Of a stretch of 32,000 nt of DNA, positions 11,781 to 31,553 are shown one piece after another. This DNA comes from an uncultured Planctomycetia bacterium (lineage in GTDB: Bacteria > Omnitrophota > Gorgyraeia > Duberdicusellales > 4484-171). The stretch lies in assembly GCA_964536865.1 (NCBI GenBank), contig CAZHYN010000015.1, positions 1-32,000 on the forward strand. Reading direction: 5' to 3'. The first letter of the stretch is position 1, and each line of letters begins with the position of its first letter. Under the pieces are notes generated by a model. The model did no database searches. It was not told the DNA's origin and saw nothing but the letters and a program-made list of their open reading frames with translations. Both the position numbers and the translations under genes were made by a program.

Positions 11781-11934
11781 TAATGAAAAATTTGGGTTAA
11801 ATAAAATTATTTACAATTTTATTAGATATATTATCTTATGGAATGAGAGTTTATTTTTACTTGGTAGGTATGTAAAAATACGTCTCTTTGCGATAGTTTT
11901 TAAGATATAGGATCATATCTGGCGTGTTGCCTCA

Positions 11935-12394
11935 TTAATAAATGTTAGTGAAAGGATATTTAAACACAAAGAGCATTTTTATTGTTGAGAGCAAATATCT
12001 TTCTAAGTTTTTCTCTATAGCGCGCCTTAATTGAAAAAGGTTAAACCCTTTCATTTGCTTTTTAAGTATCCGTTTAACAGAGGTTGATACATAGGTAGAT
12101 TCTAATACCCTCTGGTAAGGTGTCTTTGATTTATCATAACGCTTAATAACCTTAGAGGCAACTCTTTTTTAGCAACTTAACCGAAGGAGAGAAGAAGTCG
12201 TGATACAGCCTCCACTCAGAAGTGTATAAATCGTTCATTGGAGCAACTACCTCTGGATTATCTAATCTTTCATAACCAAGCCATTGCTTTAGGTGTGTCC
12301 AGTTCTTCTGCTCTATATGACAGTTGTCTTGCTTTTGGTAAGATCTGCTTCTGGTAAACTGGATAAGATTCTTTCTCTGGGTAATCGGTAACAT
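11935..12394 (-). pseudogene. DDE (rve/integrase-core type) transposase remnant, 5'-truncated and frameshifted
   Basis: The 80-aa ORF reads ...HIEQKNWTHLKQWLGYERLDNPEVVAPMNDLYTSEWRLYHDFFSPSVKLLKK. The family C-terminus continues in another frame (VIKRYDKSKTPYQRVLES...NLFQLRRAIEKNLERYL) down to a stop at 11935-11937. No catalytic N-terminal part lies upstream. Confidence 0.7.
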
Positions 12395-12639
12395 TATTTA
12401 TGAGTCAACGAAACAAATTTGATTTAATTTGGATAACATTTAATAATATGAATTAATTCGCTATACCATTTTCTCTTGCATTTTGTAGCTTTTTTGATAG
12501 ATTATTTATTAGAATAATTAATAAAAATGATAATTTTCAAAATGTTTTTTCAGTAGGAATTATTTAGAAAATTAGAAAAGGAGTTATTTGATGGTGTTTT
12601 CAAAGTAAGGGGCAGGTTTTGAAATTCTTAAAGATTTTT

Positions 12640-13381
12640 GTTTATTTTTTAATTATTTTTTTCATCTTTGGAGATAACTTTTATAGTTGTGGTCCTGGAA
12701 CAACGAGGGAACCGATAGAAGAAATAATTATTTTTGTCCGGAGAATAAGATAAGAGATGAAGCAACTAAGGCACCAGGTGGAGACTGGATTTTGACCTTA
12801 GACTGTGATGTTATTTTGGAAAAATGTTTTTCTCTAACTTCTTAAAAATAATAGGCATAGGTAATTTACTCTCTAACGTAGGAATGTTACAGCCAAAGAT
12901 ATTGAGACCGGATAAAGAGATAATCTATTCTTATGGAATATATCTTTCTAGTTAGTGAAAGTTTTATGATATTGACAGAGGTAGGAAGGATTGTGAGAAC
13001 TTTAATATATCAGAACATATTTTCGAAGCCTGTTCTTCTCGTACTTTTTATAATCGCAAAATGCTTGAGAACACAAAAGAGATAATTGGATATTTTGATG
13101 AGAGGTTTTTCTTTTTAGTAGAGGATGTAGATTTAGCTTGGCGGGTACAGAGAAAAGGATGGAAGGCAATCTACTATCCTCAGATAATTTGTTTTTACTG
13201 TGACAACAGCTCTGGTTTTGATAAGGAATGTAGGCAGTACCTTTGTTTTTGCAATCAATACTACTCTATAGCCAAGAACCAAGGACTTAAGGATTATTTT
13301 AAAAAATTCTTACCTTTTCTGTTATACGATATTCCCCGAATATTTTATTTAATTTTTACCAACTACTATATATATAATTAA
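12640..13381 (+). pseudogene. family 2 glycosyltransferase, broken by several stops and frameshifts
   Basis: GT2 pieces occur in different frames. These are PENKIRDEATKAPGGDWILTLDCDVILEK (DxD region), NVGMLQPKILRPDKEIIYSYGIYLS, KFYDIDRGRKD, and then the track ORF 13061-13381 (GYFDERFFFLVEDVDLAWRVQRKGWKAIYYP). Confidence 0.7.
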
Positions 13382-13390
13382 ATAATAGTT

Positions 13391-14599
13391 ATGAATGTTG
13401 AACTAATGAGAAAATTAGATTACTGGTTTGGTATACCCTTATGTTTTTTACTCACAGAGATAAATTATATTTTAAAATTGTTTTCCTCTAAAAAAAAGAA
13501 GACTATACATAAGAAATTTTTGTTTATTAAATTATCTGAGATGGGTAGTATTATTTTAGCTTATCCCCTTATGAAGAAGATACAGAGAGAATATGAAGAA
13601 GCGCCGTTATTTTTCCTTACTTTCAAAAAAAATGCTCCTATTTTCCAGGTTTTGAATATAGTGCCACCTTCAAATGTTTTAACTATACGAGATGATACAT
13701 TTTCTAAATTTCTCTTTGATACTCTAAAAGTAATTGTGAGAATAAGAAAAGAGAGTATAGATACAGTTTTTGATTTAGAATTTTTTTCTCGCTTTACAGC
13801 AATAGTAGCTTACTTAACTGGTGCTAAGATGAGAGTAGGGTTCTACAAATATAGATTTGAAGGATTATATCGAGGAAAAATTTTGACCAATAATGTTCAA
13901 TATAATCCTCTATTACATATAAGTAAAATGTATTTATCTTTTGCAGAAGCACTAAAATTAGAAGAGAAATTTACTCCCTGTCTTGAAAGAAAGGTCAACG
14001 ATAGTGAATTAGTTCTACCTAATATTGATTTACCTATAGAAGTAGAGGAGATGGTGTATAATAGATTAAAGAACTTAGGGATAGATGGTGATAAGAGGTT
14101 ATTTCTTATTAATCCTGGGGAAGGGAAGCTCCCTTTAAGAGAATGGCCTATAGAAAATTTTATTAAATTATCTAAAATGCTTTTAGAAGATAAAAAAAAT
14201 TATATTTTTATTGTAGGAAGTAAAGAGGCTGTTAAAAATGCAGAGAGATTATTTTGCGCTGTTAATAGTGAAAGATGTATAAGTCTGGCTGGTAAAACTA
14301 GTTTATTGGAACTATTAGCCCTTTTTAAAAAAGCTGATGTATTAATAGTCAATGATTGTGGGTTAGCACATCTGGGTTCTTTAACTTCAATAAAAAAAAT
14401 TATTCTCTTTGGCCCGGAGAGTCCACATATCTTTGGACCTTTAGATAGAAACAGCTATGTGATATATGTGAATTTACCATGTTCTCCTTGTTTTTCTGTA
14501 TTTAACCATCGAAGTTCAGCTTGTAGAGATAATAAATGTCTTAAATTGATTAAGGCAGAAGAGATATATGATTTGGTAAAGAACCTTATAGGATTTTAA
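13391..14599 (+). CDS. family 9 glycosyltransferase (heptosyltransferase-like)
   Basis: FLFIKLSEMGSIILAYPL, LINPGEGKLPLREWPIENF, LAGKTSLLELLALFKKADVLIVNDCGLAHLG and LFGPESP motifs typical of the GT9 fold. Confidence 0.8.
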   Translation: MNVELMRKLDYWFGIPLCFLLTEINYILKLFSSKKKKTIHKKFLFIKLSEMGSIILAYPLMKKIQREYEEAPLFFLTFKKNAPIFQVLNIVPPSNVLTIRDDTFSKFLFDTLKVIVRIRKESIDTVFDLEFFSRFTAIVAYLTGAKMRVGFYKYRFEGLYRGKILTNNVQYNPLLHISKMYLSFAEALKLEEKFTPCLERKVNDSELVLPNIDLPIEVEEMVYNRLKNLGIDGDKRLFLINPGEGKLPLREWPIENFIKLSKMLLEDKKNYIFIVGSKEAVKNAERLFCAVNSERCISLAGKTSLLELLALFKKADVLIVNDCGLAHLGSLTSIKKIILFGPESPHIFGPLDRNSYVIYVNLPCSPCFSVFNHRSSACRDNKCLKLIKAEEIYDLVKNLIGF

Positions 14600-14629
14600 A
14601 ATTTATCGAGTTGAAAAATTAAATCTCAG

Positions 14630-15734
14630 ATGAGATCAAAAGTTGGTATTGTCAGATATGAAGCGTATAGAGATGTAAAGCGCACAATAGAAAGAGTTTT
14701 AGAAAGTATAGATTGCCTTTCTTTTTTAAAAGAAAAAACTCTTCTTGAGTAAATATTTCAACAAGAAAAGATTGCAATGCAGCAACAATACTCATCCAGA
14801 GGTTGTCAGGGTAATAATTCAGATAGTTCGAGAATACGGTAGTGAACCATAAGTGGGAGATTCCTTTGCAGTGTTAGGTTTAACAAAAAAGGTTTTTGAG
14901 AATTGTGGAGTTAAGGAAGTTTGTCAAGAAGAAAATGTGAGATTAATCAATTTTGATACTTCCTTAATAGTTAAAAAGAAAATGGATGGCGAAATATTAA
15001 AAGAGATATTTTTACCACAGGAGGTTTTAGAGATTGATCTTCTATTATCATTACCAAAACACAAAACTCATAATTTTATGTTTTTTACAGGAGCACTGAA
15101 AAATCAGTTGGGAATTATTCCGGGTGCCCTAAAACCTAAAATTCATCAGATGGCGCCAAATATAATTGATTTTTCAAAAGCATTGGTAGATATTAACCTT
15201 GCAGTTAAGTTTAATCTTGCAGTTATGGAAGGCATAATAGGTCTTGAGGGAGCAATTCTTCTAATAGCCGTTCTTGAAAAAAGCAAATTTTGTAGTTGCA
15301 AGTTCTGATTTAGTAACCTTAGATACTTTTGTATAAATATGATTGATTTAGATTCCGATAAAACCGTAATAAATAAGATTGCAGAAAGGAGAAGTTTAGG
15401 AAGTACTGATTTAAATAATGACGTTGTAGGTGATTTTGATAGAATTAAGATGGTTAAATTTAGACCCGCACCTTTTAATATAGAGCAGATACCTATTTTT
15501 TCTAAAATTAAATTTAGAGTTTGAAGTGACGTTGCTATGTCATTCATTTATAGAGAGAAATATACTAAGTGTGGAACCTGTCAGATAAGGTGTCCACCAG
15601 ATGCAGTCGTTATTGCAAAGCATTTTAAGATCGATCAGAGAAAATATATAAAATATTTCTCTTGTGTTGAGAATTGTCCAGAAGAAGTTATAAAAATCAG
15701 AGTACTTTTATATTTAAAACTCTTTATAAAATAA
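14630..15734 (+). pseudogene. DUF362 domain protein with C-terminal 4Fe-4S ferredoxin domain, multiply disrupted
   Basis: Family blocks are scattered over three frames. MRSKVGIVRYEAY...KEKTLLE* is followed by NNTHPEVVRVIIQIVREYGSEP* (TAA at 14850-14852). Next comes VGDSFAVLG...LPKHKTHNFMFFTGALKNQLG...MEGIIGLEG, then FVVASSDLVTLDTFV*, then MIDLDSDKTVINKIAERRSLG...VVGDF. The ferredoxin tail reads KCGTCQIRCPPDA plus YIKYFSCVENCPEEV, where two expected Cys are Tyr. Confidence 0.75.
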
Positions 15735-15765
15735 ACACAAGGCACTTACAAAGAATTAATAATAT

Positions 15766-17337
15766 GTGTTGTTATCTATGAGGCTGGTCAAAAATCAAAA
15801 AATTTCAATGGTTCTTTTTTTGATTTTAATTTTTAGTTTTTTCTTGAGAATTTATAGAATAGATTATCATAGAGTTTGGTATGATGAAGTCAGATCCATT
15901 GCTACCGCAGAGAAAATATCAAGTAAGGAAGGATTTTTTGCCTATTATAAGCCTCTATATTTTTTAATTTTAAAATTATGGATTAATCTTTTTGGGATAG
16001 ATGTGACACTTTTAAGGTTGCTCTCGGTAATATTTGCTATTATTTCAATTATATTTATCTACCGAATTGGTTGTCTCATTATTAATTCAAGATTAGGAAT
16101 AATTAGTGCTTTTCTTCTGAGCATATCCTGTTTTCATATCTATCATAGTCAGCAAGTGCGTCATTTTACTTTTTTGGTAATGCTTTGTGTTTTATCTTAT
16201 TTTTATCTCTTGAAAATTTGGCAAGGTAGGAATAAATTTTTTTTATACAATACATTTTTGAATATTTTGATAATTTTCACCCATCCTTATGGTTTATCTG
16301 TGGTTTTGGCACAAAATCTGTGTATATTTTTAGTCTTCAATAGAAAAAAAATAAAGAGGTGGTTTTCCTATCAAAGTATTATATTTTTGAGTTGTATCAT
16401 CTGGTTTATCTTTTCAGATAGAGATACTATGGTAAAGAATACATGGTGGATAAAAGTTCCTCATTTTAACAATATTATAGAGACGTTACATACATTTAGT
16501 TACGGAGGTCCAAGGTATGGATTAGATGATTTTCAAATTGTCTTTAATTTCCCCATAATTATTAATTTAATCTTTCTAATTTTTGCTGTATTTTTAATCT
16601 TCGGATCTATTAAGCTTTTTGGAAAACATAGAAGGGCATTTTATTTTCTCTTAGGCTGGTTGATTATTCCTATCCTTAGTGCTTATATCTTTTCTTTATT
16701 ATTTTTTCCTGTCTATTTAATAAAACATCTTATTATATGCTTACCAGCATTTTATCTTTTAGTTGGAGTAGGTATTTGTGAACTGAGAAGAAAATTATTG
16801 GTTTGTTTAGTAGTTGTTTCTATATTTTTATTGAACATTTATCCGTTAAAGGTTATTTATGTTGAGGACTATAGTATCGATTGGGAAAAAGCTACGGAGT
16901 TTCTTAAAAATAATATAAAACCTTTTGATGCTATTTTAATTTCTCCAGTTTGTCAGTTGAATAGTTTTCTTTATTATTTTCGCCCACATAAGCGAGGTTT
17001 TCTTAAGGACTTAGATACATATGGCAAAGTTTTAAATGGCAATATTGTAGAGGTATTTAAGGAGAGAGATAATTTGATCTTGGGGCTAAAACAGAACCAG
17101 AATAGAAATATAGCAGATTTTAAAAAAGAGATATTAGAGAAGATCAATATACTAAAGAAGTATTTTGAGGGAGAGAATGTTTGGTTACTAGTTGACAGAT
17201 GGACGGATCAGGGATCGGACGAAGAGAATTTCCTTGTCCATACTTTTTCTAATGTTTACCATAAAGAAGACATGCAGAGATTTTACGGTATAAATGTATA
17301 TAAGTTTAAAAACTATGAGATTTGCACTGATTTTTAA
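15766..17337 (+). CDS. GT-C membrane glycosyltransferase, family 39/83-like (ArnT/PMT_2-like)
   Basis: Polytopic membrane protein. The first-loop motif RIDYHRVWYDEVRSI carries the DE signature of ArnT/PMT-type enzymes, and there is a soluble C-terminal domain. The track start is GTG 15766; ATG 15778 is an alternative. Confidence 0.7.
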   Translation: MLLSMRLVKNQKISMVLFLILIFSFFLRIYRIDYHRVWYDEVRSIATAEKISSKEGFFAYYKPLYFLILKLWINLFGIDVTLLRLLSVIFAIISIIFIYRIGCLIINSRLGIISAFLLSISCFHIYHSQQVRHFTFLVMLCVLSYFYLLKIWQGRNKFFLYNTFLNILIIFTHPYGLSVVLAQNLCIFLVFNRKKIKRWFSYQSIIFLSCIIWFIFSDRDTMVKNTWWIKVPHFNNIIETLHTFSYGGPRYGLDDFQIVFNFPIIINLIFLIFAVFLIFGSIKLFGKHRRAFYFLLGWLIIPILSAYIFSLLFFPVYLIKHLIICLPAFYLLVGVGICELRRKLLVCLVVVSIFLLNIYPLKVIYVEDYSIDWEKATEFLKNNIKPFDAILISPVCQLNSFLYYFRPHKRGFLKDLDTYGKVLNGNIVEVFKERDNLILGLKQNQNRNIADFKKEILEKINILKKYFEGENVWLLVDRWTDQGSDEENFLVHTFSNVYHKEDMQRFYGINVYKFKNYEICTDF

Positions 17338-18820
17338 TCCATTTAAATACAAAATTCATGAAGAGAATATAAGAATTGTCCAAAAATATTTTGGTCTTTT
17401 TCCACCTTTAAGTATTAGTTGGGTAGCTTCTATCGCCGAAAAAGCAGGACATAAAGTAATAATTGTAGATGCAAGAACTTTAAAACTTACTATGGCAGAA
17501 ACGTTAGATATATTAAAAAAATTTAAACCCGATATCATGGGTTTTATGATGACAACATATATGTTTCCTGATACTTTAACTTGGATCAGATTTTTGAAGA
17601 AGCATTTGAAAATTCCTGTAGTAATAGGAGGATATAATTTAAGAATTTATCCTAAAGAATCCGTTTCCCATCCAGAGATAGAGTTTGGAGTGGTTGAACA
17701 TGCTTATTATACAATTCCTGCTCTTTTTAGAGAGTTAGAAAAGGAAAGACCAAACTTTGATAATGTTCCAGGACTTGTTTACAAAAAAGATGGAAATATT
17801 TTTGTTACTCCTCATCCCCAAAAAATAGATTTTGATAAATTTCCTAATCCTGCAAGACATCTATTACCCAATGAATTATATGCTGAATTTCCTACAGAGA
17901 GAAGGAATTTCACTGTGATGGTTACCTCTTTAGGATGTCCCTTCGGGTGTACATTCTGTGAGGCGGGAAGAACTCCTTATTCGCCTCGTTCCCCAGAAAC
18001 CGTTGTTAGGGAAATGGAGGAATGTTACTATAAGTATAATATTAGAGAAATAGATATTTTTGATTATGAATTTACAGGAATAAGAGAACGAGTGCTAAAA
18101 ATATGTAAGTTATTACAGGAGAGAAAGTTGGATATTATTTGGGCCTGCCGTTCTCGAGTAGATACAGTAGATGGTGAACTACTACAGGAAATGAAAAAAG
18201 CAGGCTGTAGTAGGATATATTTTGGATTGGAGTCGGGTAATCAAGAGATACTTAATAAAGTAAATAAAGGAATAACCCTTAAACAGATACGAGACACGAT
18301 AGGAATATGTCGAGATTTAGGAATAAAATCTTTGGGGTTTTTTCTGATAGGCGCACCTGGAGACACTAGAGAAACAGTAAAAGAGACTTTAAATTTTGCT
18401 AAGAGTTTGGATTTAGATTATGTTCAATTTTCAAAATGTTTAGCTAAGCCTTTGACTCCTTTGTGGAAACAAATGGTTGAAAACACTGGAAAGGATTATT
18501 GGAAAGATTGGATATTGGGCAAAGAGATAGATAGATCCTTACCAAGACCATGGACAAGTCTTACAAATAGAGAGATCGATAAATTAGCTAAGTGGGCCTA
18601 TGTTTCCTATTATTCAAATCCACGCCGTCTTCTGAAATCTGTTTTAGGAGTTCGCTCCTTCTCAGAATTTAAAAGGAAATTTTTTGCCTTTGTAGATATG
18701 GTTTTTTCGCAGGAAAAAGTAGCTAATGAAGATGTAAATTTCGAGGCTTTTAATGAAAATTTAAAGAGCACTATTCACATATGTAAAAAGAGACTAAAGG
18801 AGGCTTTTTTAAAGGAATAA
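17315..18820 (+). CDS. B12-binding domain-containing radical SAM protein (class B)
   Basis: N-terminal Rossmann-like cobalamin domain (AGHKVIIVDA...PDIMGF....IPVVIGG). CPFGCTFC CxxxCxxC motif, plus SRIYFGLESG. The track start at 17294 overlaps the upstream gene; in-frame ATG 17315 (MRFALIFNP) is preferred. Confidence 0.85.
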   Translation: MRFALIFNPFKYKIHEENIRIVQKYFGLFPPLSISWVASIAEKAGHKVIIVDARTLKLTMAETLDILKKFKPDIMGFMMTTYMFPDTLTWIRFLKKHLKIPVVIGGYNLRIYPKESVSHPEIEFGVVEHAYYTIPALFRELEKERPNFDNVPGLVYKKDGNIFVTPHPQKIDFDKFPNPARHLLPNELYAEFPTERRNFTVMVTSLGCPFGCTFCEAGRTPYSPRSPETVVREMEECYYKYNIREIDIFDYEFTGIRERVLKICKLLQERKLDIIWACRSRVDTVDGELLQEMKKAGCSRIYFGLESGNQEILNKVNKGITLKQIRDTIGICRDLGIKSLGFFLIGAPGDTRETVKETLNFAKSLDLDYVQFSKCLAKPLTPLWKQMVENTGKDYWKDWILGKEIDRSLPRPWTSLTNREIDKLAKWAYVSYYSNPRRLLKSVLGVRSFSEFKRKFFAFVDMVFSQEKVANEDVNFEAFNENLKSTIHICKKRLKEAFLKE

Positions 18821-18894
18821 TTAACTGGGTTAAGACCAAAAAATATAAATTTAACACAATTTACCCTGGGAAAAGAACATGATATTATGAAAAC

Positions 18895-19049
18895 CTACCT
18901 CCTTAAAAAAAGATATAATAATGAAGGTTGTCTAAGGAAAGGAGGTAGATATGCAAGGTTTAGAAAGAGTAAAAAGGTTTAGGTATTTTTCCACCATAGG
19001 TGGATCCTTCGCCTGAGGCGAATCCACCTCTGGTGGAACCTCTGGTGGA
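18895..19049 (+). ncRNA. candidate IS110 bridge/seek-type RNA or translational control leader
   Basis: Perfect 10-bp stem CTACCTCCTT (18895-18904) / AAGGAGGTAG (18939-18948). This is followed by GC-rich, mutually exclusive hairpins CCACC-ATA-GGTGG (18991-19003), GGTGGA...TTCGCC-TGA-GGCGAA TCCACC (18999-19028) and CCACC-TCT-GGTGG (19024-19036). A tandem 12-mer ACCTCTGGTGGA x2 (19026-19049) abuts the ATG. Confidence 0.3.
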
Positions 19050-20021
19050 ATGGGAATTGACCAGCACAAAAGATATTCTCACATCACGATAATTGATGAG
19101 ATAGGAGACTTAGTAGAAGAAAGAAAACTATACCATTATGATAAAGAAGGTATGCTTAATTATTTTAAATCCTTTAATCCCCACCAAACAAAAGTAGTAT
19201 TAGAAGCAACTGGAAATTGGTATTGGTTAGCCGACCTTTTAGAATCAGCCAACTTAACCCATATATTAGCCCATCCTTACAAAACAAGAATAATTGCTGA
19301 AAGTAAGATAAAAACAGACTCCATATCAAGCTTTACCTTAGCTCAACTGTTGAGAGCAGGACTTATTCCTCAGAGCTATTTAGCTGGCAGGAAGACAAGG
19401 TCTCTAAGAGAGCTATTAAGATACAGAATCTCCTTAGTTAAGGTAAGGAGTTCTTTAAAATGCCGGATTCACTCTATATTAGATAGAGAAGGAATAGATA
19501 CCCCTCAAATTTCTGATTTATTTGGCAGGAAAGGTTTAATGTGGCTGGAAAGCTTATCTTTAGCTTACCCTCTATCTTGCTCCTTAAAAGATTATCTTAA
19601 TCTTATTGAGAGACTAAATTCTTTAATAGATGAGACGGAAAAATCAATAAAATTAACTATAAAAGAAAACCCTTTAGCCCAACTTCTTCTTACTGTTCCC
19701 GGAATTGGTTTCTTTACAGCCTATCTTATTCTTTGTGAAGTAGTAGATATAACCAGATTCCTAACTCCTAAAAAACTTTCCTCCTATATAGGAATAGTTC
19801 CCTCAATTCATCAATCAGGAAACTTCTCTCACACAGGAAAGATAACCAAACAGGGAAATAAATACCTAAGATGGGCACTAATTGAAGCATCCCAGAAAGC
19901 AATAATAAAAGATCCCTATTTAAAAGCAATATATGATAAAATAACCTATAAAAAAGGAAAACAATCTGCCAGAGGCAGATCCGCTCTTGGCGGAAAAAGT
20001 AAAGGTAGCAGTTGTCAATAA
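19050..20021 (+). CDS. IS110 family transposase (3' end frameshifted; family C-terminus continues in +1 frame to 20121)
   Basis: MGIDQHKRYS..I.IID, VLEATGNWYW (DEDD N-domain), VPGIGFFTAYLILCEV.DI.RF...KKLSSYIGIVPSIHQSGN....GKITKQGNKYLRWALIEA (Transposase_20 domain). The +1 frame from 19996 reads KVKVAVVNKLAYNMSNIKIQEPY..., the usual family tail. Confidence 0.85.
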   Translation: MGIDQHKRYSHITIIDEIGDLVEERKLYHYDKEGMLNYFKSFNPHQTKVVLEATGNWYWLADLLESANLTHILAHPYKTRIIAESKIKTDSISSFTLAQLLRAGLIPQSYLAGRKTRSLRELLRYRISLVKVRSSLKCRIHSILDREGIDTPQISDLFGRKGLMWLESLSLAYPLSCSLKDYLNLIERLNSLIDETEKSIKLTIKENPLAQLLLTVPGIGFFTAYLILCEVVDITRFLTPKKLSSYIGIVPSIHQSGNFSHTGKITKQGNKYLRWALIEASQKAIIKDPYLKAIYDKITYKKGKQSARGRSALGGKSKGSSCQ

Positions 20022-20272
20022 ATTAGCATATAATATGAGCAACATTAAAATACAAGAACCCTATAGATCTAAAAAAACTAATAATATCCTTATGCCTCAG
20101 GCAACCGATGATTTTTTCTGAGCAAAAAGAGCCCGACAAAATGAATGGGAAGCCCTAAGGCCTATCAAATAGACCGTATCCCGAAAAGTCGGGGCGAAGA
20201 GATGAATAGCTAAATGTCATTAAAAAAGAAAAGAAATTAAAGTTTTTATTGACAAGAGGGAGGTTTTCAGAG

Positions 20273-21235
20273 ATGAAAATTTTGGTAACAGGAGGATTAG
20301 GGTTTATAGGAAAGCAGCTGGTACAGCGGCTTATGAAGGAGAATCAAGTGATAGTGATAGATAAAAATACTGAAAAGGATAAATTTAAGGATAAATTTAT
20401 GGAAAGTAATTTGTTAATGTATAATTTAGATCTATCCCAATCTCCTCCCTTAGAATTTCTTAGAGATATAGATTATGTATTCCATTTAGCTACAGCCAAG
20501 GATTCAGCAGGTGAGAAGGTGTGTTATTTAACCAATGTGGAAGGAACAATAAATCTTCTTCACTGGCTTGCTGAGTTAAGTCCTAATTTAAAAAAATTTA
20601 TCTATATAGGTTCTCTTTTAAGTTATGGATTTGGTGAAAAGAAAAAAGCCAGTTCTTTATACGGAAAGACAAAACTATTAGCAGAAAGAGAGATAAGGAG
20701 ATTTGGCGATAGAATCCCTTATATTATTTTGCGCTCTTGCAGAGTCTATGGTCCCGGAGATAAAAGAGGAATTTATTTAATATTCAAATTCATAAAAAAA
20801 GGTTTTATCCCTGTAGTTTCTAAAGTAGAAGAAAGGTTTGCTAGCCTTATATATATAGATGATATAATAGAGGCGATGATATTAGCTGCACAAAGTAATA
20901 TAACAAATAAGGTTTATTCCATATCCGATGGAAACGTATATTCTTGGAAAGAGGTTTATGAAGCTATGGCTTTAGCTTTAGATAAAGAATATAAGAAATT
21001 ATATAAGATAACAATTCCTCAAAAATTAATAATAAAAGTCCTCCCACTTTTAAGAAATATAAGCAAACTATTGGGTGCCTCTTTAGAAGGGCAAAGCTTA
21101 GAAGAGTTAAGTTCTAAATATTGGACCTGTGATCCTTCAGATTTCTTTGAAGACACAGGCTTTAAGCCAAAGATATTTTTAAGAGAGGGGATGCAGAGAA
21201 CTGGAGAGTGGTTGAAGAATCAAGACCTATTGTGA
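20273..21235 (+). CDS. NAD-dependent epimerase/dehydratase family protein (extended SDR)
   Basis: MKILVTGGLGFIGKQLV (GxxGxxG), catalytic YGKTK (YxxxK), RVYGPGD. GAGGGAGG SD upstream of ATG 20273. The track start at TTG 20249 is unlikely. Confidence 0.85.
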   Translation: MKILVTGGLGFIGKQLVQRLMKENQVIVIDKNTEKDKFKDKFMESNLLMYNLDLSQSPPLEFLRDIDYVFHLATAKDSAGEKVCYLTNVEGTINLLHWLAELSPNLKKFIYIGSLLSYGFGEKKKASSLYGKTKLLAEREIRRFGDRIPYIILRSCRVYGPGDKRGIYLIFKFIKKGFIPVVSKVEERFASLIYIDDIIEAMILAAQSNITNKVYSISDGNVYSWKEVYEAMALALDKEYKKLYKITIPQKLIIKVLPLLRNISKLLGASLEGQSLEELSSKYWTCDPSDFFEDTGFKPKIFLREGMQRTGEWLKNQDLL

Positions 21236-21239
21236 AAAG

Positions 21240-22736
21240 ATGAAGATTTTATTTATCCATCTAGGAAAAGAACAATTAGGAATTGAATACATATCCAGCC
21301 TTTTAAAACAGGCAGGTCACAGTGTCTATCTGATAAATGATCCAGGACTTTTTAGTAGAGAAGACAATGTGTTTTACATACCTATACTAGAGAAAGTATT
21401 TGCGTATAGAAAGGAAGAAATTTTACAAAGAGCTAGAAAGATTAATCCCGATGTTATTGCTTTTTCAGTATATTCTACAACTTATCAATGGAGTAAAGCG
21501 ATAGCAGCTTATCTAAAAAAAGAGTTAAATCTTCCTATTGTATTTGGTGGTCCGCATGTAACATTAGTTCCTGAAGAGGTGTTAAAGAATACTTTTGTCG
21601 ATTTTATAATTATTGGTGAAGGAGAATATCCAATGCTTAATTTGGTAGAGGCGTTAGAAAAAGGAGATACTTTCTCTAGATTTAAAAAAATAAATAGCTT
21701 GGGATTCAAAGAAAATAGTAAGTTGATTATTAATCCTATGGATGAACCTGTAGACTTAGATGTTTTACCTTTCCCTGATAAGGAACTCTTTCGGGAGTAT
21801 ATAAATTATAAGTATGATTATCTTATTATGACTGGAAGAGGCTGTCCGGGGCGATGTACATATTGCTGTGAAGGTTTTTATAGCGCCCTTTACAAAGGAA
21901 AAAATGTTCGCAAGAGAAGTATCTCTAATGTGATAGAGGAGTTAAAAATGGCAAAAGAAAAATATAATTGTGAAGAAGTAATATTTTATGATACCGACTT
22001 TCTTCGAGATAAATCTTGGGTTTATGATTTCTTACCTCTCTATAAGGATCAGATAAATATTCCCTTCAAATGTTTAGCCCATATTAGAAATATAGATAGG
22101 GATACAGTAAATTTATTAAAAAAGTGTGGATGTTATTGTTTAAATTTTGGCATCCAAATTATAAATAACCAGATAAAGTCGCAAGTTCTCTATAGACCAG
22201 AAACAGAATTTGATGTATTAAATATATTAAGAATTTGTGACGAAGTTAGATTGAGATATGATTTAGATACCATCGTTGGCTTACCTAATGAAAAGGAAGA
22301 AGACCACCTTTTTACAATAGAATGTATTAAAAATGGCAAATTGCTTAATAGAGTAAAATGTTTTTATTTAGCCTATTTTCCAAATTTACCCATAGTTGAA
22401 GAAGCTTACAAAAAAGGTTATTTGGATGATAAAGACCTACAGGATATAAAAGAAGGAAAGAGGGCAAATTTTATTTACCCTTCTCATAAAGTAGATAAAA
22501 AAGATGAGAATTTACGTAGATTCTATAGAGTTTTTCCATTTTTACCTAAATTTATAATAAATTTAATATCGAAATATAAGTTATACCGTTTCTTCTATCG
22601 ACTTCCCCTATTTTTGATTATAATGGTTGAACTTTTAAATGGCATAAAGAAAAGAGACTACAGGTTTACATTATATATCAAAAATTATATCTACCAAATA
22701 CGTAGAAGATTATCTGGTAAATTTGAAGAGATATGA
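21240..22736 (+). CDS. B12-binding domain-containing radical SAM protein (class B), paralog of 17315-18820
   Basis: N-terminal cobalamin-type domain (AGHSVYLIND...PDVIAFSVY....LPIVFGGPH). CPGRCTYC CxxxCxxC motif. Starts 4 nt after the SDR gene. Confidence 0.85.
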   Translation: MKILFIHLGKEQLGIEYISSLLKQAGHSVYLINDPGLFSREDNVFYIPILEKVFAYRKEEILQRARKINPDVIAFSVYSTTYQWSKAIAAYLKKELNLPIVFGGPHVTLVPEEVLKNTFVDFIIIGEGEYPMLNLVEALEKGDTFSRFKKINSLGFKENSKLIINPMDEPVDLDVLPFPDKELFREYINYKYDYLIMTGRGCPGRCTYCCEGFYSALYKGKNVRKRSISNVIEELKMAKEKYNCEEVIFYDTDFLRDKSWVYDFLPLYKDQINIPFKCLAHIRNIDRDTVNLLKKCGCYCLNFGIQIINNQIKSQVLYRPETEFDVLNILRICDEVRLRYDLDTIVGLPNEKEEDHLFTIECIKNGKLLNRVKCFYLAYFPNLPIVEEAYKKGYLDDKDLQDIKEGKRANFIYPSHKVDKKDENLRRFYRVFPFLPKFIINLISKYKLYRFFYRLPLFLIIMVELLNGIKKRDYRFTLYIKNYIYQIRRRLSGKFEEI

Positions 22737-23956
22737 GAAGAGTGATTTTAATAAAAAGACCGTTCTTTTATGAAGGAGAGATACGAGATATTTTTTCTTT
22801 TTTCCTCTCTCAAGATAAAAATTGTCAATTGGAGAAATTTGAACAGAGGTTTTTAAAATATATAGGAGGAAAGTCTGCTTTTTGTACTATTTCAGGAAGA
22901 ATGGCTCTTTATTTGATATTGAAAGCCCTTAATTTAAAAGAGAAAGACGAAGTAATTCTCCCTGTTTATACTTTTTTTGCTATTCCTACCATCATTTCGT
23001 CTTTAGGGCTTAAGCCAGTATTTGTGGATATAGATGAAACTTGCAACATAAACCCTGAACTTATTCCAGAGAAGATAACCTCCCGTAGTAAAGTTATAAT
23101 TCCTACCCACCTTTTTGGTCAACCTTGTAATATGGAGAAGATTTCAAAAATAGCGAAAAAGTTTAATTTGTTTGTTATAGAAGATTGTGCCCATGCTTTG
23201 GGTGCTGAATATAAAGGGAGAAAAGTTGGAAGCTTAGGAGATGCCTCTTTTTTCAGTTTTAGTGTAAGTAAATTTATTAATACATTTAAAGGTGGAGCTG
23301 TTATAGTGAATAACTCTGCCTTACTTCCTAAGATAAAAACTGAATTTAGCAATTTTAAATATCCTCCCAAAAGTATTGTGTTAAAAATCATATTCAAGCT
23401 TCTTTTAACGAGACTATTTTTCAACCCTCCTATATATAGTAATTTTATTTTCCCTATTAACTTATACTTAAGAAATATGAAATATAGAAATGTGATGGAG
23501 CTATACCGGAAGATAATCTCTCGAAAAGAAGCAAAGAAAACCCATAACCTCCCAAAATATAGATACACTAATCTACAGGCTTCTATTGCCAATAAGCAGC
23601 TTTTACTTTTAGATAGGATCAATGATTTACGAAGGCAGAAATTAGAATTTTTATGCAGTAAGTTGAAACCCGAAATAAAGACTACGTATTTATCAAATAT
23701 AGAAGGTATAAAAAGCGCACCTTTAGTTTTAGGTATTTATTCAAACTCTAAAAAAGAGACTACAAAGAAACTATTAGAGAGAGGAATAGAGGTGGATGAT
23801 AATTTTATGCAAAATTGTTCCAAAATTTTTGATAGAGTAGGTCACTATCCCGTTGTCGAAAAAGTAGAAAAGGAGCTCCTTATTTTAAATATCGACCCAT
23901 ATTATAAAATGTGTGATTTGATACGTATTGCCCAAGCTCTTAATGAAATTATCTAA
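22733..23956 (+). CDS. DegT/DnrJ/EryC1/StrS family aminotransferase
   Basis: SGRMALYLILKAL......DEVILP.YTF.A, IPTHLFGQPC.M..I..IAKK.NLFVIEDCAHALGA.YKGRKVGSLGDASFFSF...K (PLP Lys)...GGA. ATGA overlap with the upstream gene. Confidence 0.85.
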   Translation: MRRVILIKRPFFYEGEIRDIFSFFLSQDKNCQLEKFEQRFLKYIGGKSAFCTISGRMALYLILKALNLKEKDEVILPVYTFFAIPTIISSLGLKPVFVDIDETCNINPELIPEKITSRSKVIIPTHLFGQPCNMEKISKIAKKFNLFVIEDCAHALGAEYKGRKVGSLGDASFFSFSVSKFINTFKGGAVIVNNSALLPKIKTEFSNFKYPPKSIVLKIIFKLLLTRLFFNPPIYSNFIFPINLYLRNMKYRNVMELYRKIISRKEAKKTHNLPKYRYTNLQASIANKQLLLLDRINDLRRQKLEFLCSKLKPEIKTTYLSNIEGIKSAPLVLGIYSNSKKETTKKLLERGIEVDDNFMQNCSKIFDRVGHYPVVEKVEKELLILNIDPYYKMCDLIRIAQALNEII

Positions 23957-23959
23957 ATT

Positions 23960-24829
23960 ATGAAAAAAAATATTTTCATTAATTTTTTGTCATTATCCAT
24001 AACTTTTATCATTTTATTTTTTTTATTAAAAAAGGTTCAATGGTCTTTGATTAAACTTGTTCTTCACAGGCTAAAGATAGAATATTTGATATTAGCTCTT
24101 CTTTTTTCTTTTCTCGGTAATCCCATATTTAACTCCTTACAATGGAAAATGATTTTAGAAGCAATGGAATATAAGGTGGCTTTAAAAGATATATTATTTC
24201 TCAGAATTTCTACTGCTCCCTTTAAATCCGTTTTGCCTCTAAAAGTAGGAGATATATTGCGAGTTATCTTTCTTAAGAGATTTTATCGAGTGCCTCTTCT
24301 TATTAGTACTCTTTCTGTTTTTTCTCATTTAGCAATAAATGTTTTGACCTGCATAGTAGTCTTTGCTGTTGGAGCTGCTTTTAACGCCGTCATTCCCCTA
24401 AAGTGTAATATTTTTACTATTCACTTTCTGGGATTAAGTGTTCCAATAAGAAATACATTGAATATTTTCAAGAAGATGATATTGAAGAACTTCTTTATTA
24501 TTCTTTGCATTTCTTTGATCCGTTTCTTTTTTGAGATATTTTCTTTTAGTATTATAGGAAAAGCTTTAGGTATTTATATACCGTTGAATAAAATTCTATT
24601 GTTTTACCCTCTAGTTTCTCTCATTGCAAATTTACCTTTAGCTTTTGAAGGATTAGGAGTTAGAGAAGGTAGTATTATTCTACTTTTTTCCTCTTTCGCC
24701 TTACAAGAAGAGTTGTTTATATTAGGTTTCCTTACCTCTCTTATTTGCCATTTTTTAGTTCCTTTTATGGGAATTTTCTTCGTGTTTAAGTTGCTAAAAG
24801 ATTTAAATTTGAAAGATGAGAAAATATAA
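23960..24829 (+). CDS. UPF0104 / lysylphosphatidylglycerol-synthase-TM-like (flippase-like) membrane protein
   Basis: Polytopic 289-aa protein with the loop motif LPLKVGDILRVIFLKR and a late GLGVREG motif, as in the MprF flippase / HpnL-type family. Confidence 0.65.
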   Translation: MKKNIFINFLSLSITFIILFFLLKKVQWSLIKLVLHRLKIEYLILALLFSFLGNPIFNSLQWKMILEAMEYKVALKDILFLRISTAPFKSVLPLKVGDILRVIFLKRFYRVPLLISTLSVFSHLAINVLTCIVVFAVGAAFNAVIPLKCNIFTIHFLGLSVPIRNTLNIFKKMILKNFFIILCISLIRFFFEIFSFSIIGKALGIYIPLNKILLFYPLVSLIANLPLAFEGLGVREGSIILLFSSFALQEELFILGFLTSLICHFLVPFMGIFFVFKLLKDLNLKDEKI

Positions 24830-27146
24830 AGAGATAGGTGTCCTTATTATCTTTATATTTTTCTTCTTTGTTTTATTCAAAAAAATATTATTTGGAAAGG
24901 TATTTTTTCGGGGTGACATTTTTTTTATGCATCTTCCTGTATTTGAGTATTGGAGAGGGAATTTTTTTTCATTAGATAGTATTTTATGGTCGCCTTCTAT
25001 CTTTTTTGGATATCCTTTAGCTTCCAATCCCCAATTTGGATTATTTTATCCACTAAATTTAATTTTCGTATTTCTTTTTAAAGATACTCTGTATGCTTTA
25101 AATCTATTAATAATCTTCAACTACTTCTTAGGACTTTTATTTACTTATATCTATCTCAGAGAACTACAAATTTCTAAATTTGGCTCTTTGATAGGTAGTA
25201 TTTGTTTTATTTTTAATAGTTTCATGCTTGATTATCACGATAGCCTTCATGCTCTTTCAACAATGATATATTTACCATTGTTATTATTTATAATTGAGAA
25301 AATATTTAATGATGGAAAATTTTTATATATTGCCCTTTCAGCCTTATTAGTCGGTCTTCAGCTTTTAGCTGGACATAGCCAATATTTTTATATCTCTTGG
25401 ACGATAGTGGTCATCTATATTCTATATAAGGTAATTTCTCAGAAAAAATCCCTTAAAAAATCTATAATAATATTCTCTTCTATTTTTATAGTTGGATTTC
25501 TAATTGCCTCTATACAGCTTCTTCCTGCTTATGGTCTTGCGCAATTTTCTTCTCGTAATCTCGCAGTGCCTTCGGCTCTATCTTTGATATCTGAACGTGA
25601 AAGTGAGAGTTTAACTCTACAGAAGATTTTAGGGTTCTTTTTTTACCATTTTGGAATAAGGAAAGATTCTCCCTTTCAGCCCTGTTTTTTAGGAACTTTT
25701 CCTTTCATTCTTGGAACATTAGGAGTCAACTTTAAAAATAAAAAAGTAAATGGTCTATTTTTTCTGTTTATATTTGGCTTCTCTTTCTTACTGTGTTTAG
25801 GTAGATGTAGTTTTTTTTATGACCTCTTTAGCTATTTACCTTGGTATTCTTATTTTCACGATCCTCTCAAATGGGAGTTCATTTTAGTCTTTTCTATATC
25901 TGTACTTTCTGCATTAGGTGTTGAAAATCTGAAAAAAGTAAATTTTCTTTGGGTTATTTCAATGATAATTTCAATTTTTATACTATGCTTAATTGGATTT
26001 TTATTTTTACTTTATCATTTTGATTTGTTAAAAATAGCGATAAACGATGTTCTTTTTACTTTCGCTATAACAGTTTTCTTTATTATTATTTTGTTTGTTT
26101 TTGAAAAGTATAAAATTATTATAAAATCACTTATTTTTATTTTTTTTCTTGCTATCATCTTCATTTATAGTCATAGAAGTATAAGGGAAATTGAAAAGAG
26201 TTTGATTGACAAGAACCGAAAGAAATTAGAGAAATTTTCAAAAGTTTTGGATGATTTAAAGCAAAAAGATAATAGCAGAATTTACTTACATAAGGAGGCT
26301 AATTTTTTTTCAATTTTTTCTTACCATCTTTATTTATGGTTATATAATTTGAAACCTCGAGTGGACAAAAGATACATATTTTCTTATCTCGATTATCCAA
26401 TGGGTAATAACCTTCTTCCTTTTAGGATTCAACACTGTTCTGGTTATGCATCCCTTATTCCTGCAAGATACCTTGAGTTTACTAAAACCTCTATGGAAAT
26501 ATCTCCAATAAGGATGATGGGATATCCTGATTTTATTTTTTATCCTAATTATTTATTTTTAAGCAATATATCCATAGCTGTAGTTCCTAAGATCAGAGAT
26601 AATAAATACTTTCATACAGAGAGTTTATTTGAGAAAGTTTACGAAAATAATCAATTTGATATCTATCGAGTAAAAACCCTCTCCGAGAGAGCCTATTTTG
26701 CTAAAGATTTTATCGTAGAAAAGGATAGACACAATATTTTGGATATTTTAAAAAAGGATACTTTTGAGCCTAAGGAGGTTGTTGTCTTGGAGAAAGCTTT
26801 AGCTATTATTGAACCTAGGAGGGAGAAGAAACATGAAAGTTATAAAATTAACATAGAAGAATACAGCAATACAAGTATTGATATAAGTTTAGAGACAAAT
26901 TCTAGTGGTTTTCTTGTTTTATTAGATTCTTTCTACCCGGGATGGGTGGCCTATTTGGATGACAGAAATGTAGAAATTTTAAGAGCGAATTATCTATTTA
27001 GAGCAGTGTATATTCCTGAAGAGGGAAGACACAGAATAGTTTTTAGGTATAAGCCATATTTATTTAGAGTAGGCTGTTGGATAAGTATTTTGACCTTATT
27101 TTTTCTTTTGGGTAGTCTGAAGTTTGCTAAAAAAGAAGTATTTTAG
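24816..27146 (+). CDS. YfhO-like GT-C membrane glycosyltransferase
   Basis: About 12 or more TM helices with an early W.P..FFGYPL...PQ.G.FYPLN block. The C-terminal globular domain ends SGFLVLLDSFYPGWVAYLDDRNVEILRANYLFRAVYIPEEGRHRIVFRYKP plus a terminal TM, which is the YfhO family tail. 14-nt overlap with the upstream gene. Confidence 0.7.
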   Translation: MRKYKEIGVLIIFIFFFFVLFKKILFGKVFFRGDIFFMHLPVFEYWRGNFFSLDSILWSPSIFFGYPLASNPQFGLFYPLNLIFVFLFKDTLYALNLLIIFNYFLGLLFTYIYLRELQISKFGSLIGSICFIFNSFMLDYHDSLHALSTMIYLPLLLFIIEKIFNDGKFLYIALSALLVGLQLLAGHSQYFYISWTIVVIYILYKVISQKKSLKKSIIIFSSIFIVGFLIASIQLLPAYGLAQFSSRNLAVPSALSLISERESESLTLQKILGFFFYHFGIRKDSPFQPCFLGTFPFILGTLGVNFKNKKVNGLFFLFIFGFSFLLCLGRCSFFYDLFSYLPWYSYFHDPLKWEFILVFSISVLSALGVENLKKVNFLWVISMIISIFILCLIGFLFLLYHFDLLKIAINDVLFTFAITVFFIIILFVFEKYKIIIKSLIFIFFLAIIFIYSHRSIREIEKSLIDKNRKKLEKFSKVLDDLKQKDNSRIYLHKEANFFSIFSYHLYLWLYNLKPRVDKRYIFSYLDYPMGNNLLPFRIQHCSGYASLIPARYLEFTKTSMEISPIRMMGYPDFIFYPNYLFLSNISIAVVPKIRDNKYFHTESLFEKVYENNQFDIYRVKTLSERAYFAKDFIVEKDRHNILDILKKDTFEPKEVVVLEKALAIIEPRREKKHESYKINIEEYSNTSIDISLETNSSGFLVLLDSFYPGWVAYLDDRNVEILRANYLFRAVYIPEEGRHRIVFRYKPYLFRVGCWISILTLFFLLGSLKFAKKEVF

Positions 27147-31541: not shown

Positions 31542-31553
31542 AAAATTGAAGTG

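Follow-up and report, generated by a model that had tools for sequence, protein, structure and literature searches.

A radical SAM-rich gene island in an Omnitrophota genome as a candidate system for tailoring lipid-linked envelope sugars

What does a tiny uncultured anaerobe of the Omnitrophota do with nine radical S-adenosylmethionine (SAM) genes packed on one strand among glycosyltransferases, sugar aminotransferases, and flippase-like membrane proteins? The question is raised by the first 32,000 nucleotides (nts) of contig CAZHYN010000015.1, which we call the window (C15:1-32000), in a genome of 1.29 Mb assembled into 22 contigs and 94% complete. An earlier note on this DNA had singled out positions 15766-23956, and had proposed for them an Arn-like pathway that builds an amino sugar on a lipid carrier with the help of two B12-dependent radical SAM enzymes. 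Having analyzed the locus to the end of the contig and compared it with its relatives, we lean, by a modest amount, toward a different order of events. The locus would be an envelope glycosylation island, in which radical SAM and DegT enzymes act on sugars already linked to lipids, UPF0104 proteins then flip the products, and GT-C glycosyltransferases pass them on. In such an island, oxygen-independent radical SAM enzymes would replace most of the usual nucleotide-sugar tailoring enzymes.

How large is the island, and is it intact? Neither 23956 nor the window end is its boundary. The island starts near 12.7 kb and continues up to position 42427, where the contig stops; it thus covers at least 31 kb on one strand, and its last gene is cut by the C15 terminus (42.4 kb). 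It includes nine radical SAM genes, three of class B (B12A, B12B, and B12C) and six small and Cys-rich, together with two DegT aminotransferases, one extended short-chain dehydrogenase/reductase (SDR), two UPF0104 proteins, one GT9, and five GT-C enzymes, one of the PMT_2 family and four YfhO paralogs. The gene order given in the earlier note (PMT_2, B12A, an IS110 insertion, SDR, B12B, and a DegT that we call DegT1) is all there, with the Pfam curated cut-offs passed, and the junctions are indeed tight: −23 nt between PMT_2 and B12A, +4 nt between SDR and B12B, and −4 nt between B12B and DegT1. After DegT1 come UPF0104-1, YfhO1, small radical SAM 1 (rSAM1), an 808-amino acid (aa) protein, UPF0104-2, rSAM2, rSAM3, B12C, a SPASM radical SAM, DegT2, YfhO2, rSAM5, and a protein cut short after more than 580 aa, in this order. 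A genome search found no further YfhO, PMT_2 or other GT-C gene, nor more of the island, on other contigs.

Gaps between the genes that follow the IS110 range from −14 to +49 nt. The 18 co-directional genes 3′ of the IS110 are free of stops and frameshifts over the assembled sequence (17 are complete open reading frames (ORFs), and the last one is cut by the contig end), and their ORFs reach 759-808 aa in DNA with a guanine plus cytosine (GC) content of about 30%. Catalytic motifs are retained as well: CxxxCxxC in 9 of 9 radical SAMs, the DegT lysine, and the YxxxK of the SDR. The earlier note had wondered whether the pathway is dying, and the intactness of these 18 genes speaks against it.

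Which of these genes carries an evolutionary signal that can be followed in other genomes? B12A (17315-18820; all the features of the window given here are on the forward strand unless stated otherwise) belongs to an orthogroup with 56-80% identity across Omnitrophota, Elusimicrobiota, and Desulfobacterota, and it aligns with its orthologs end to end. There are hundreds of homologs at 64-80% identity, the named ones labelled as metagenome-assembled genomes (MAGs) of Omnitrophota, Elusimicrobia, or Spirochaetes. A scan of species-representative genomes at ≥55% identity resulted in 53 ortholog loci, hosted by Omnitrophota, Elusimicrobiota, Desulfobacterota (Smithella, Desulfobacterales), Auribacterota, and Aminicenantes MAGs, and the neighbors in these loci were assigned using a labelled reference set and clustering.

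The steadiest partner of B12A is a GT9. It is adjacent on the same strand in 23 of the 53 loci (20 upstream, 3 downstream), and in ten of those 23 the GT9 and B12A genes overlap by 4 nt. The window has its own GT9 (13391-14599; Pfam Glyco_transf_9, PF01075, 79.7 bits), heptosyltransferase-like, for which the heptosyltransferase II model is the best among the heptosyltransferase equivalogs with 95 bits, under its cut-off of 134.6. With the GT9s that neighbor B12A in other loci it has 37-53% identity, but only about 27% with the seven further GT9 paralogs in the same genome; judged by sequence, it is an ortholog of the B12A-partner GT9s. Here, the PMT_2 gene and a DUF362 fragment lie between the two genes. 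Where a GT9 is adjacent, B12A is 59-78% identical while the GT9 is only 25-53% identical, and therefore B12A is under much tighter constraint than its partners. The GT9-B12A pair is a conserved core, and it may act on an acceptor of the lipopolysaccharide (LPS) core type.

The rest of the neighborhood is consistent with sugars. Near B12A we find a further class B paralog in 35 of the 53 loci, a small radical SAM in 23, a GT2 in 16, a membrane protein with C-terminal TPR in 15, a UPF0104 in 14, a PMT_2/YfhO-like GT-C in at least 12, and a DegT in 10. A B12B-like cluster is found in 23 of the 48 clustered loci, and directly downstream of B12A in nine. A PMT_2 gene lies directly upstream of B12A in two relatives as well (L004 and L006), and in several relatives orthologs of UPF0104-2 (28-38% identity) come after B12A, B12B, and a small radical SAM. 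Compact modules of B12A, B12B, small radical SAM, and UPF0104 without a DegT also exist; in one of them, L070, there is only a TPR protein nearby, which is a candidate GT-C. Whether B12A keeps company with the SDR and DegT pair in relatives, as expected by the earlier note, has a divided answer: the DegT does recur, but the SDR is rare (1 of 53 loci, plus the related locus L069).

Several relatives fuse these activities into one protein. P0026, 72% identical to B12A, has a GT2 fused at its C-terminus. Among second-tier homologs (43-45% identity), ORFs as long as 734-758 aa turn up in four or more Omnitrophota genomes, and for one of them, L073:9346-11583 (745 aa) from the complete Omnitrophota genome G143, the fusion of B12-binding, Radical_SAM, and GT2 domains was confirmed. 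The same locus encodes a UPF0104::SAM-methyltransferase fusion (L073:14330-15943, 537 aa), and both fusions belong to an O-antigen-like cluster that also has methyltransferases, another class B radical SAM, and a Wzy_C protein. In L004, a GT2, a YdjC, and a class B radical SAM stand in a row. Thus, from the GT9, GT2, GT4, DegT, UPF0104, PMT_2/YfhO, and Wzy_C genes in the relatives' B12A loci, the GT2 fusions, and AprD4 as the nearest solved structure (see below), the theme of sugars and lipid-linked extracytoplasmic glycosylation, already proposed for this DNA, finds support.

As for the numbers of these enzymes, a class B hit (a B12A homolog with E ≤ 1e-30) is present in 224 of 301 sampled Omnitrophota genomes, many of which have at least five in genomes of 1-3 Mb, and one genome has 56 first-pass class B candidates. 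The Omnitrophota have undergone a large expansion of class B radical SAMs. In a related island, a gene of the peptidase U32 family (L069:2524-3699) sits between two class B radical SAMs; U32 is the family of the O2-independent hydroxylases UbiU/UbiV. B12A orthologs (67-69% identity) also occur in MAGs with the unlikely labels Nanoarchaeum sp. (L019) and Eubacteriales (L030), where a mistake in binning or labelling is more probable than a genuine host.

What could the class B enzymes do? Their placement is based on NCBIfam profile scores, sequence matches to the PDB, and fold matches. B12A has a B12-binding domain (PF02310, 48.6 bits) and a Radical_SAM domain (PF04055, 91 bits), with the motif CPFGCTFC from residue 215 as numbered from an alternative ATG at 17294 (a 508-aa ORF); the start at 17315 is also the one used by the gene caller of an independent assembly. 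Its AlphaFold2 (AF2) model, with a mean predicted confidence (pLDDT) of 92.8, superposes on AprD4, TsrM, MgmA, OxsB, TokK, and CysS. The best solved match is AprD4, both by sequence (86.6 bits) and by fold (TM score 0.75), at 19% identity. Among NCBIfam models, B12A scores 169 bits with HpnJ (cut-off 577.6), 134 with ApyD, 122 with PhpK, 120 with BchE, and 96 with AprD4 (cut-off 500).

B12B (21240-22736) has a B12-binding domain with 76.2 bits, a Radical_SAM domain with 51.7 bits, and the motif CPGRCTYC. Its closest homologs are only 46% identical, and it belongs to a family of fast-diverging paralogs. Its top NCBIfam scores are 112 bits with TIGR04072 'lipid biosynthesis' (cut-off 360) and 110 with HpnJ, and its best solved match is 9CCB, which is MgmA (PMC11796369). 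B12C scores 141 with HpnJ and 133 with BchE, and its B12 domain stays below the cut-off (28.3 vs. 32.1). The B12-binding domain and the CxxxCxxC core of the class B architecture are both found in B12A and B12B. Judging from these profiles and folds, all three appear to be genuine class B-architecture radical SAMs, for which methylation, dehydration, and ring rearrangement are all possible. No NCBIfam equivalog cut-off is approached by any of the three, and a firm clustering with a lipid or porphyrin family, which would have spoken against a sugar substrate, is not observed. The C-methylation or ring rearrangement that the earlier note assigned to B12A and B12B is at present a guess.

The likeness to HpnJ deserves a word of caution. 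An HpnJ (TIGR03471) identity can be rejected for B12A, B12B, and B12C, with 169, 110, and 141 bits against the 577.6 required. The model does not discriminate at those scores: in five other genomes it finds 7-11 class B radical SAMs per genome at 140-240 bits, with no true HpnJ above cut-off in any of the five. A squalene-hopene cyclase was not found in the 94%-complete genome, and no HpnG-type gene was seen in the annotated loci. The similarity to HpnJ pointed out before is thus generic.

The small radical SAMs and the DegT enzymes form the second part of the argument. All six small radical SAMs have an N-terminal CxxxCxxC followed by 4-7 more Cys toward the C-terminus, and in one of them Pfam reports a SPASM match. 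rSAM1 (27151-28095; Radical_SAM 81.7 bits, CNRNCIYC) has a SPASM/twitch-like Cys-rich C-terminus, with downstream Cys at C242, C260, C286, and C289. rSAM2 is also reported by Pfam and runs beyond the window end (31551-32000 in the window, C15:31551-32546 in full); its orthologs in B12A loci are 38-46% identical. rSAM1, rSAM2, and rSAM5 are mutual paralogs with 35-40% identity. When rSAM1 was searched exhaustively, 235 representative clusters came up at E ≤ 1e-30, and their proteins are almost without exception 320-340 aa in length. The three exceptions are all fusions: a radical SAM-DegT (P0371), a DegT-radical SAM (P0373), and a B12B-like::small radical SAM (P0134). On C15 itself, the SPASM radical SAM is followed by DegT2 after a 2-nt gap. 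The fusions and the 2-nt gap therefore support a coupled oxidation and transamination. As far as sequences can tell, the radical SAM-DegT fusions would support a BtrN-like role, not membership in the BtrN family.

DegT1 (22733-23956) is a sugar aminotransferase dependent on pyridoxal phosphate. The two island DegTs score 223 (DegT1) and 260 bits with the Pfam model, K180 (the catalytic Lys) and D151 are invariant, and fold matches have E ~1e-26. The AF2 model of DegT1 (pLDDT 86.7) matches the folds of QdtB, perosamine synthase, WecE, and ArnB, which have 359-369 aa. Into that fold the model places an insertion of ~45 aa that forms a hydrophobic helical hairpin (residues ~213-248), and this hairpin is common to all seven island DegTs that we aligned and to the DegT halves of both fusions. 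A canonical DegT encoded on contig C9 of the same genome is without it. Two class B enzymes have hydrophobic elements of their own, by hydropathy: a C-terminal helix in B12B (residues 451-469), and a similar hydrophobic helical tail in B12C. We infer from sequence and models that the DegT hairpin and the B12B and B12C tails may be membrane-interface elements, with the tailoring taking place on lipid-bound sugars.

Which proteins would move and transfer those sugars? UPF0104-1 (23960-24829) is a flippase-like protein with six hydrophobic segments (Pfam LPG_synthase_TM 66.5 bits, TIGR00374 46.6 bits), and UPF0104-2 (30564-31541) reaches 95.6 bits with the Pfam LPG_synthase_TM model. UPF0104 is the flippase domain of MprF. 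Of the GT-C enzymes, which require lipid-phosphate-sugar donors, the PMT_2 protein (15766-17337; ArnT/PMT fold class) has 35 bits over a cut-off of 26.1 and ~9 hydrophobic segments, and YfhO1 (24816-27146; PF09586) has 96.7 bits and ~11 hydrophobic segments. YfhO2 scores 51.3 bits, and YfhO family members here have 10-12 hydrophobic segments each. Two other proteins without Pfam match are YfhO paralogs: the 808-aa protein at 28101-30527 (~12 hydrophobic segments), 30% identical to YfhO1 over 776 aa with E 5e-101, and another at 28-29% identity (E 6e-37). Thus, of the three GT-Cs counted in the earlier note, the third (28101-30527) is indeed one despite having no Pfam match.

The SDR (20273-21235; Pfam Epimerase 95 bits) is of the type of nucleoside diphosphate (NDP)-sugar epimerases, dehydratases, and reductases. 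Its ATG at 20273 is behind a GGGAGG ribosome-binding site, the N-terminus is intact, and it has both the GxxGxxG (TGGLGFIG) and the YxxxK (YGKTK) motifs. Its best solved relatives are NDP-sugar epimerases and dehydratases, and the ArnA-type model gives it 17 bits vs. a cut-off of 294.

Putting these parts together, we envision four steps. A sugar would first be put on a membrane lipid at the cytoplasmic face, either polyprenyl phosphate or an LPS-core-like acceptor, by the island GT9 and by a carrier-type GT2 encoded elsewhere in the genome. Then, at the membrane and on the lipid-bound sugar, the small SPASM/twitch radical SAMs would oxidize a hydroxyl to a ketone as BtrN does, the insertion-bearing DegTs would transaminate the ketone to an amine, and B12A, B12B, and B12C with the SDR would make carbon-centered changes (such as C-methylation, deoxygenation, or ring rearrangement). 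In a third step, the two UPF0104 proteins would flip this sugar, completed and still linked to its lipid, across the inner membrane, and finally the PMT_2 and the four YfhO-type GT-Cs would transfer it to periplasmic acceptors.

Does the genome provide what these steps would need? Two carrier-type GT2s are present elsewhere in it, one with C-terminal hydrophobic segments (C13:27090-27953) and another at C3:49007-49675. In 12-16 of the relatives' islands there are GT2s of ~245 aa whose best matches are ArnC, AglJ, PgfS, and PpgS. For cobamides, there are three cobalamin riboswitches in the genome (C11:119-8689, C8:3912-6142, and C1:145281-148336). One precedes a salvage operon with CobC-like, CobU, CobT, CobS, and CbiB genes and a BtuF-like gene, and another precedes a TonB-dependent receptor. 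The supply of cobamide is therefore plausible. An intact GT2 elsewhere and genes for cobamide salvage or uptake were both put forward by the earlier note as things to look for, and the genome search found them. The AprD4 protein has a B12-like domain yet uses no cobalamin; for B12A and B12B, the salvage and uptake genes make cobalamin use possible. As a separate observation, the third riboswitch is followed by a gene for a 721-aa protein and then a 210-aa radical SAM gene, a pair that, going by their N-terminal sequences only, looks like an anaerobic ribonucleotide reductase and its activase. As for the outer envelope, the genome encodes LpxC and the HldE kinase domain; therefore, the organism makes LPS and ADP-heptose.

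Several observations weigh against the island as we have just described it. There is no carrier-loading GT2 on contig C15. GT9 enzymes are known to act on 3-deoxy-D-manno-octulosonic acid (Kdo)-lipid A with ADP-heptose, not on polyprenyl carriers, and the flippase for LPS is MsbA; because of this, GT9 and B12A may be in a sub-pathway of their own (the LPS core), separate from the UPF0104 and GT-C part. BtrN was not among the PDB relatives of the small radical SAMs at E ≤ 0.01, and by their scores the small radical SAMs resemble BtrN no more than they resemble the SPASM enzymes that modify peptides or heme. The insertion in the DegTs could serve for contacts within an oligomer or with a partner, and not as a membrane anchor. 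The rarity of the SDR in the relatives' loci has been mentioned already. Strict B12A orthologs (≥69% identity) are patchy, with only 7 of 300 other Omnitrophota species genomes having one. Finally, the left flank of the island is decayed, as we describe below.

The DegT and SDR enzymes bring up the alternative that we would place first among the others, although we consider it unlikely: an Arn-like order of events, in which the SDR, DegT, and radical SAMs tailor a soluble NDP-sugar, and only then does a GT2 load undecaprenyl phosphate, followed by flipping and GT-C transfer. After all, the relatives of the DegT fold and of the SDR are all NDP-sugar enzymes, the island DegTs score 137-158 bits with ArnB and 158-178 with PseC, the relatives' islands have ArnC-like GT2s, and radical SAMs of the AprD4, GenK, and BtrN types use soluble sugars (general knowledge; PMC9012708). 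On the other hand, the island has no nucleotidyltransferase and no ortholog of an NDP-sugar 4,6-dehydratase, its DegTs have a hydrophobic hairpin that canonical NDP-sugar DegTs lack, two of its class B radical SAMs have hydrophobic tails, and the UPF0104::methyltransferase and class B radical SAM::GT2 fusions of the relatives point to tailoring after the transfer to the lipid. Nor is there any Arn equivalog cut-off reached; for ArnB, as an example, it is 631 bits. Membership in Arn proper, as orthologs of ArnB, ArnC, ArnA, ArnT, or ArnE/F, is rejected for the same reason, with only the PMT_2 fold class in common with ArnT. So, what is left of the Arn comparison in the earlier note is its overall logic, without Arn orthologs, and with UPF0104 instead of ArnE/F as translocators.

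The steadiness of GT9 next to B12A suggests another alternative, in which the tailored lipid is itself the product. Here, a GT9 or GT2 would add a sugar to a glycerolipid or to lipid A-core, this head-group sugar would be turned into an amino, deoxy, or carbocyclic one by the radical SAMs and DegT, and UPF0104 would flip the glycolipid, as in the GpgSDF, HexSDF, and HpnIJKL systems. The gap in conservation between B12A and GT9 is what one would expect if the substrate, for instance the inner core, does not vary, LpxC and HldE are in the genome, modules free of DegT such as L070 exist, and the published UPF0104 systems yield lipid-bound amino sugars (PMC12713373, PMC10128005). Against it count the five GT-C genes that are interleaved with the tailoring genes here, and the GT-C or TPR-membrane proteins that recur in relatives. 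GT-C enzymes need a lipid-phosphate-sugar donor, and LPS has its own flippase. We think this scenario improbable.

Could the whole island be a horizontally acquired remnant, in decay and without a current function? The left flank invites the question. The first 11,047 nts of the window are occupied by housekeeping genes (RuvC, RuvA, ScpB, MetK, AhcY, phosphofructokinase, and aldolase) with GC ~0.36; from ~11 kb on, the GC drops to 0.28-0.33, versus 0.35-0.36 for the genome. At the left edge there is a PqqD-like ORF (11181-11495; of the type of a RiPP recognition element (RRE), where RiPP stands for ribosomally synthesized and post-translationally modified peptide) with one in-frame TGA at a conserved Trp position, which when read through as W has 34.7 bits with Pfam PqqD (cut-off 23.4), and which is probably a TGG>TGA pseudogene. 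Next comes a genuine GT2 pseudogene (12747-13369), as was already noted from the sequence: by tblastn it has 53% identity to the intact GT2 of L002, with two in-frame stops, one frameshift, and the N-terminus lost. Its orthologs in relatives are the GT2 genes found just before the GT9-B12A pair. A 151-aa ORF at 14853-15308 spans only positions 48-170 of the 200-position DUF362 model, and it is probably a gene remnant; a related locus, L068, has a full-length DUF362-ferredoxin protein of 368 aa.

The same broken genes are found in a Logan contig of the same organism from an independent assembly (L071), which is 100% identical to window 12385-18919. As an aside, this contig ends on both sides at mobile-looking sequence, a minus-strand 80-aa ORF remnant (12152-12394) on one side and the left flank of the IS110 on the other; both ends may thus mark the border of a repeat or of a variant. 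Its end at 18919, about 100 nt past the B12A stop codon, is probably the left edge of the IS110 insertion, which occupies 18920-20250 of the spacer between B12A and the SDR (the left edge being inferred and the right one approximate). The transposase (19050-20021) is an IS110-family member with both DEDD_Tnp_IS110 (PF01548, 70 bits) and Transposase_20 (PF02371, 88 bits), and no second copy of it exists in the assembly, where only short GC-hairpin repeats are common to other contigs. Being intergenic, the insertion interrupts no reading frame, and it may affect transcription only, by polarity. A promoter and terminator scan of 11000-21300 gave counts near the shuffled expectation. The GC-rich hairpin repeats, within otherwise AT-rich DNA, are at 18985-19050, 19965-19996, and ~11540-11800, and are 83-96% identical to copies on contigs C2, C6, C7, C8, C9, C10, and C11; one of them is just 5′ of the IS110 transposase start, and another within its C-terminal coding region.

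The dead GT2 had been proposed as the enzyme that loads the carrier. The scores of its family, taken from the intact L002 homolog, rule this out: 95 bits with EpsD and 88 with PgaC, and only 26 with ArnC (cut-off 529). Because it is a glycan-elongating type of transferase, the dead GT2 costs one decoration step at most. The remnant scenario can also point to the patchy B12A orthologs, with B12A homologs in same-family genomes at 45-47% identity or weaker only, and it is true that, with the low GC, this pattern suggests that the island, or at least its core, has spread horizontally. Still, beyond 15.7 kb the decay affects spacers only. As far as they are assembled, the 18 genes that follow the insertion are intact with their catalytic motifs, and B12A aligns in full length with its orthologs. 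We regard an island without function as quite improbable.

Least of all do we believe that the radical SAMs act on a RiPP peptide or on an isoprenoid lipid (as in an HpnH-like alkene adenosylation followed by amination), an idea that could appeal to the PqqD-like remnant at the left edge, to the SPASM peptide and heme maturases that best match the small radical SAMs (HpnH only weakly, with 54-71 bits), and to the 'lipid biosynthesis' model at the top for B12B, but for which there is no precursor peptide, protease, exporter, or intact RRE present, the hopanoid genes sought were missing as described, all the model scores are far under the cut-offs, and the fusion partners DegT and GT2 are sugar enzymes.

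Returning to the envelope glycosylation island as the reading that we prefer, is it peculiar to this genome? A much broader proposal, which we offer tentatively and would not favor over its negation, is that anaerobic diderm phyla (Omnitrophota, Elusimicrobiota, Desulfobacterota, and others) have in common an undescribed radical tailoring of membrane-anchored sugars. Twitch/SPASM radical SAMs and membrane-dipping DegTs would install amines without NAD or O2, and the GT9-B12A pair would make a cobalamin-dependent carbon change on a heptose or hexose of the LPS-core type (for instance, a 6-C-methyl or 7-deoxyheptose-like sugar, or a contraction to a carbasugar).

Why does it matter? To our knowledge, nearly all radical SAM chemistry of sugars described so far comes from the making of antibiotics (BtrN, AprD4, GenK, DesII), to which the hopanoid step of HpnJ can be added. 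Here, the same enzyme classes appear in bulk within primary envelope glycosylation loci of widespread uncultured anaerobes. If the model of an envelope glycosylation island is correct, they would provide an O2- and NAD-independent route to amino, deoxy, and C-branched sugars on lipid carriers, and new LPS and glycoconjugate structures with consequences for antigens, phage receptors, and geochemical biomarkers. The model would also connect the supply of cobamides with the building of the envelope in nanobacteria whose genomes measure 1.3 Mb. The radical tailoring shared among phyla, if it exists, would make envelope sugars of types unseen in any LPS or glycoconjugate. The island and its relatives also offer compact enzymes to test: the radical SAM-DegT fusions, the class B radical SAM-GT2 fusions, and B12A with its 60-80% conservation. 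In comparison with what had been noted before on this DNA, the GT9-B12A pairing, the gap in constraint between B12A and its neighbors, the DegT subfamily with its insertion, the new assignment of the dead GT2, and the checks at the level of the genome are new. In the literature that we searched, no paper connects class B radical SAMs with GT9, LPS, O-antigen, or YfhO, and none reports islands of this kind from Omnitrophota or Elusimicrobia.

How does the island compare with the systems that are known? One of the closest is the hopanoid series of HpnI (GT2), HpnK (YdjC deacetylase), HpnJ (class B radical SAM), and HpnL (UPF0104). The island also has GT2, class B radical SAM, and UPF0104 types, and the GT2, YdjC, and class B radical SAM in a row in L004 are the same enzyme series as HpnI/K/J. 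HpnJ has been proposed to rearrange lipid-bound glucosamine, and HpnL is found beside HpnIJK (PMC13459092). HpnJ is the top NCBIfam match of B12A and B12C, yet both remain far below its cut-off, as given above.

In butirosin biosynthesis, BtrN oxidizes an aminocyclitol hydroxyl for a DegT-type transaminase, a logic that goes from hydroxyl to amine without NAD or O2 (PMC9012708). The island resembles BtrN/BtrS in having small radical SAMs with a C-terminal Cys cluster paired with DegT enzymes, to which the relatives add fusions in both orders. It differs in the hydrophobic insertion of its DegTs, and in that the setting is envelope glycosylation and not an antibiotic cluster. AprD4/AprD3 of apramycin combine a radical SAM 1,2-diol dehydratase that has a B12-like domain with an SDR reductase, and in the island the SDR gene came after B12A before the IS110 inserted. 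The differences are that an SDR seldom adjoins B12A orthologs, and that B12A and AprD4 are as distant as the 19% identity and the 96 bits (vs. 500) indicate.

GpgSDF makes a glucosamine-phosphatidylglycerol in Pseudomonas aeruginosa (PMC12713373), and HexSDF an aminohexosyl glycolipid in Clostridioides difficile (PMC10128005). As in the island, a glycosyltransferase of the cytoplasm works there with an enzyme that tailors the sugar and with a flippase of the UPF0104/MprF kind, and a lipid-bound amino sugar results. Both systems are different in that they have three genes, with a deacetylase that exposes the amine, and are without radical SAM, DegT, or GT-C.

Finally, the three-component systems, that is, CsbB/GtcA/YfhO of teichoic-acid glycosylation in Bacillus and Listeria, GtrA/GtrB/GtrC, and Arn, have in common with the island a GT-C of the YfhO or PMT_2/ArnT kind, a dedicated membrane translocator, and, for Arn, a DegT aminotransferase (ArnB). 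ArnC/AglJ-like GT2s are present too, in the relatives' islands and elsewhere in this genome. The island departs from them in that the translocator is UPF0104, not GtrA/GtcA or ArnE/F, in having five GT-C genes together and the carrier-type GT2s away from the contig, and in having nine radical SAM genes in the place usually taken by the nucleotide-sugar enzymes.

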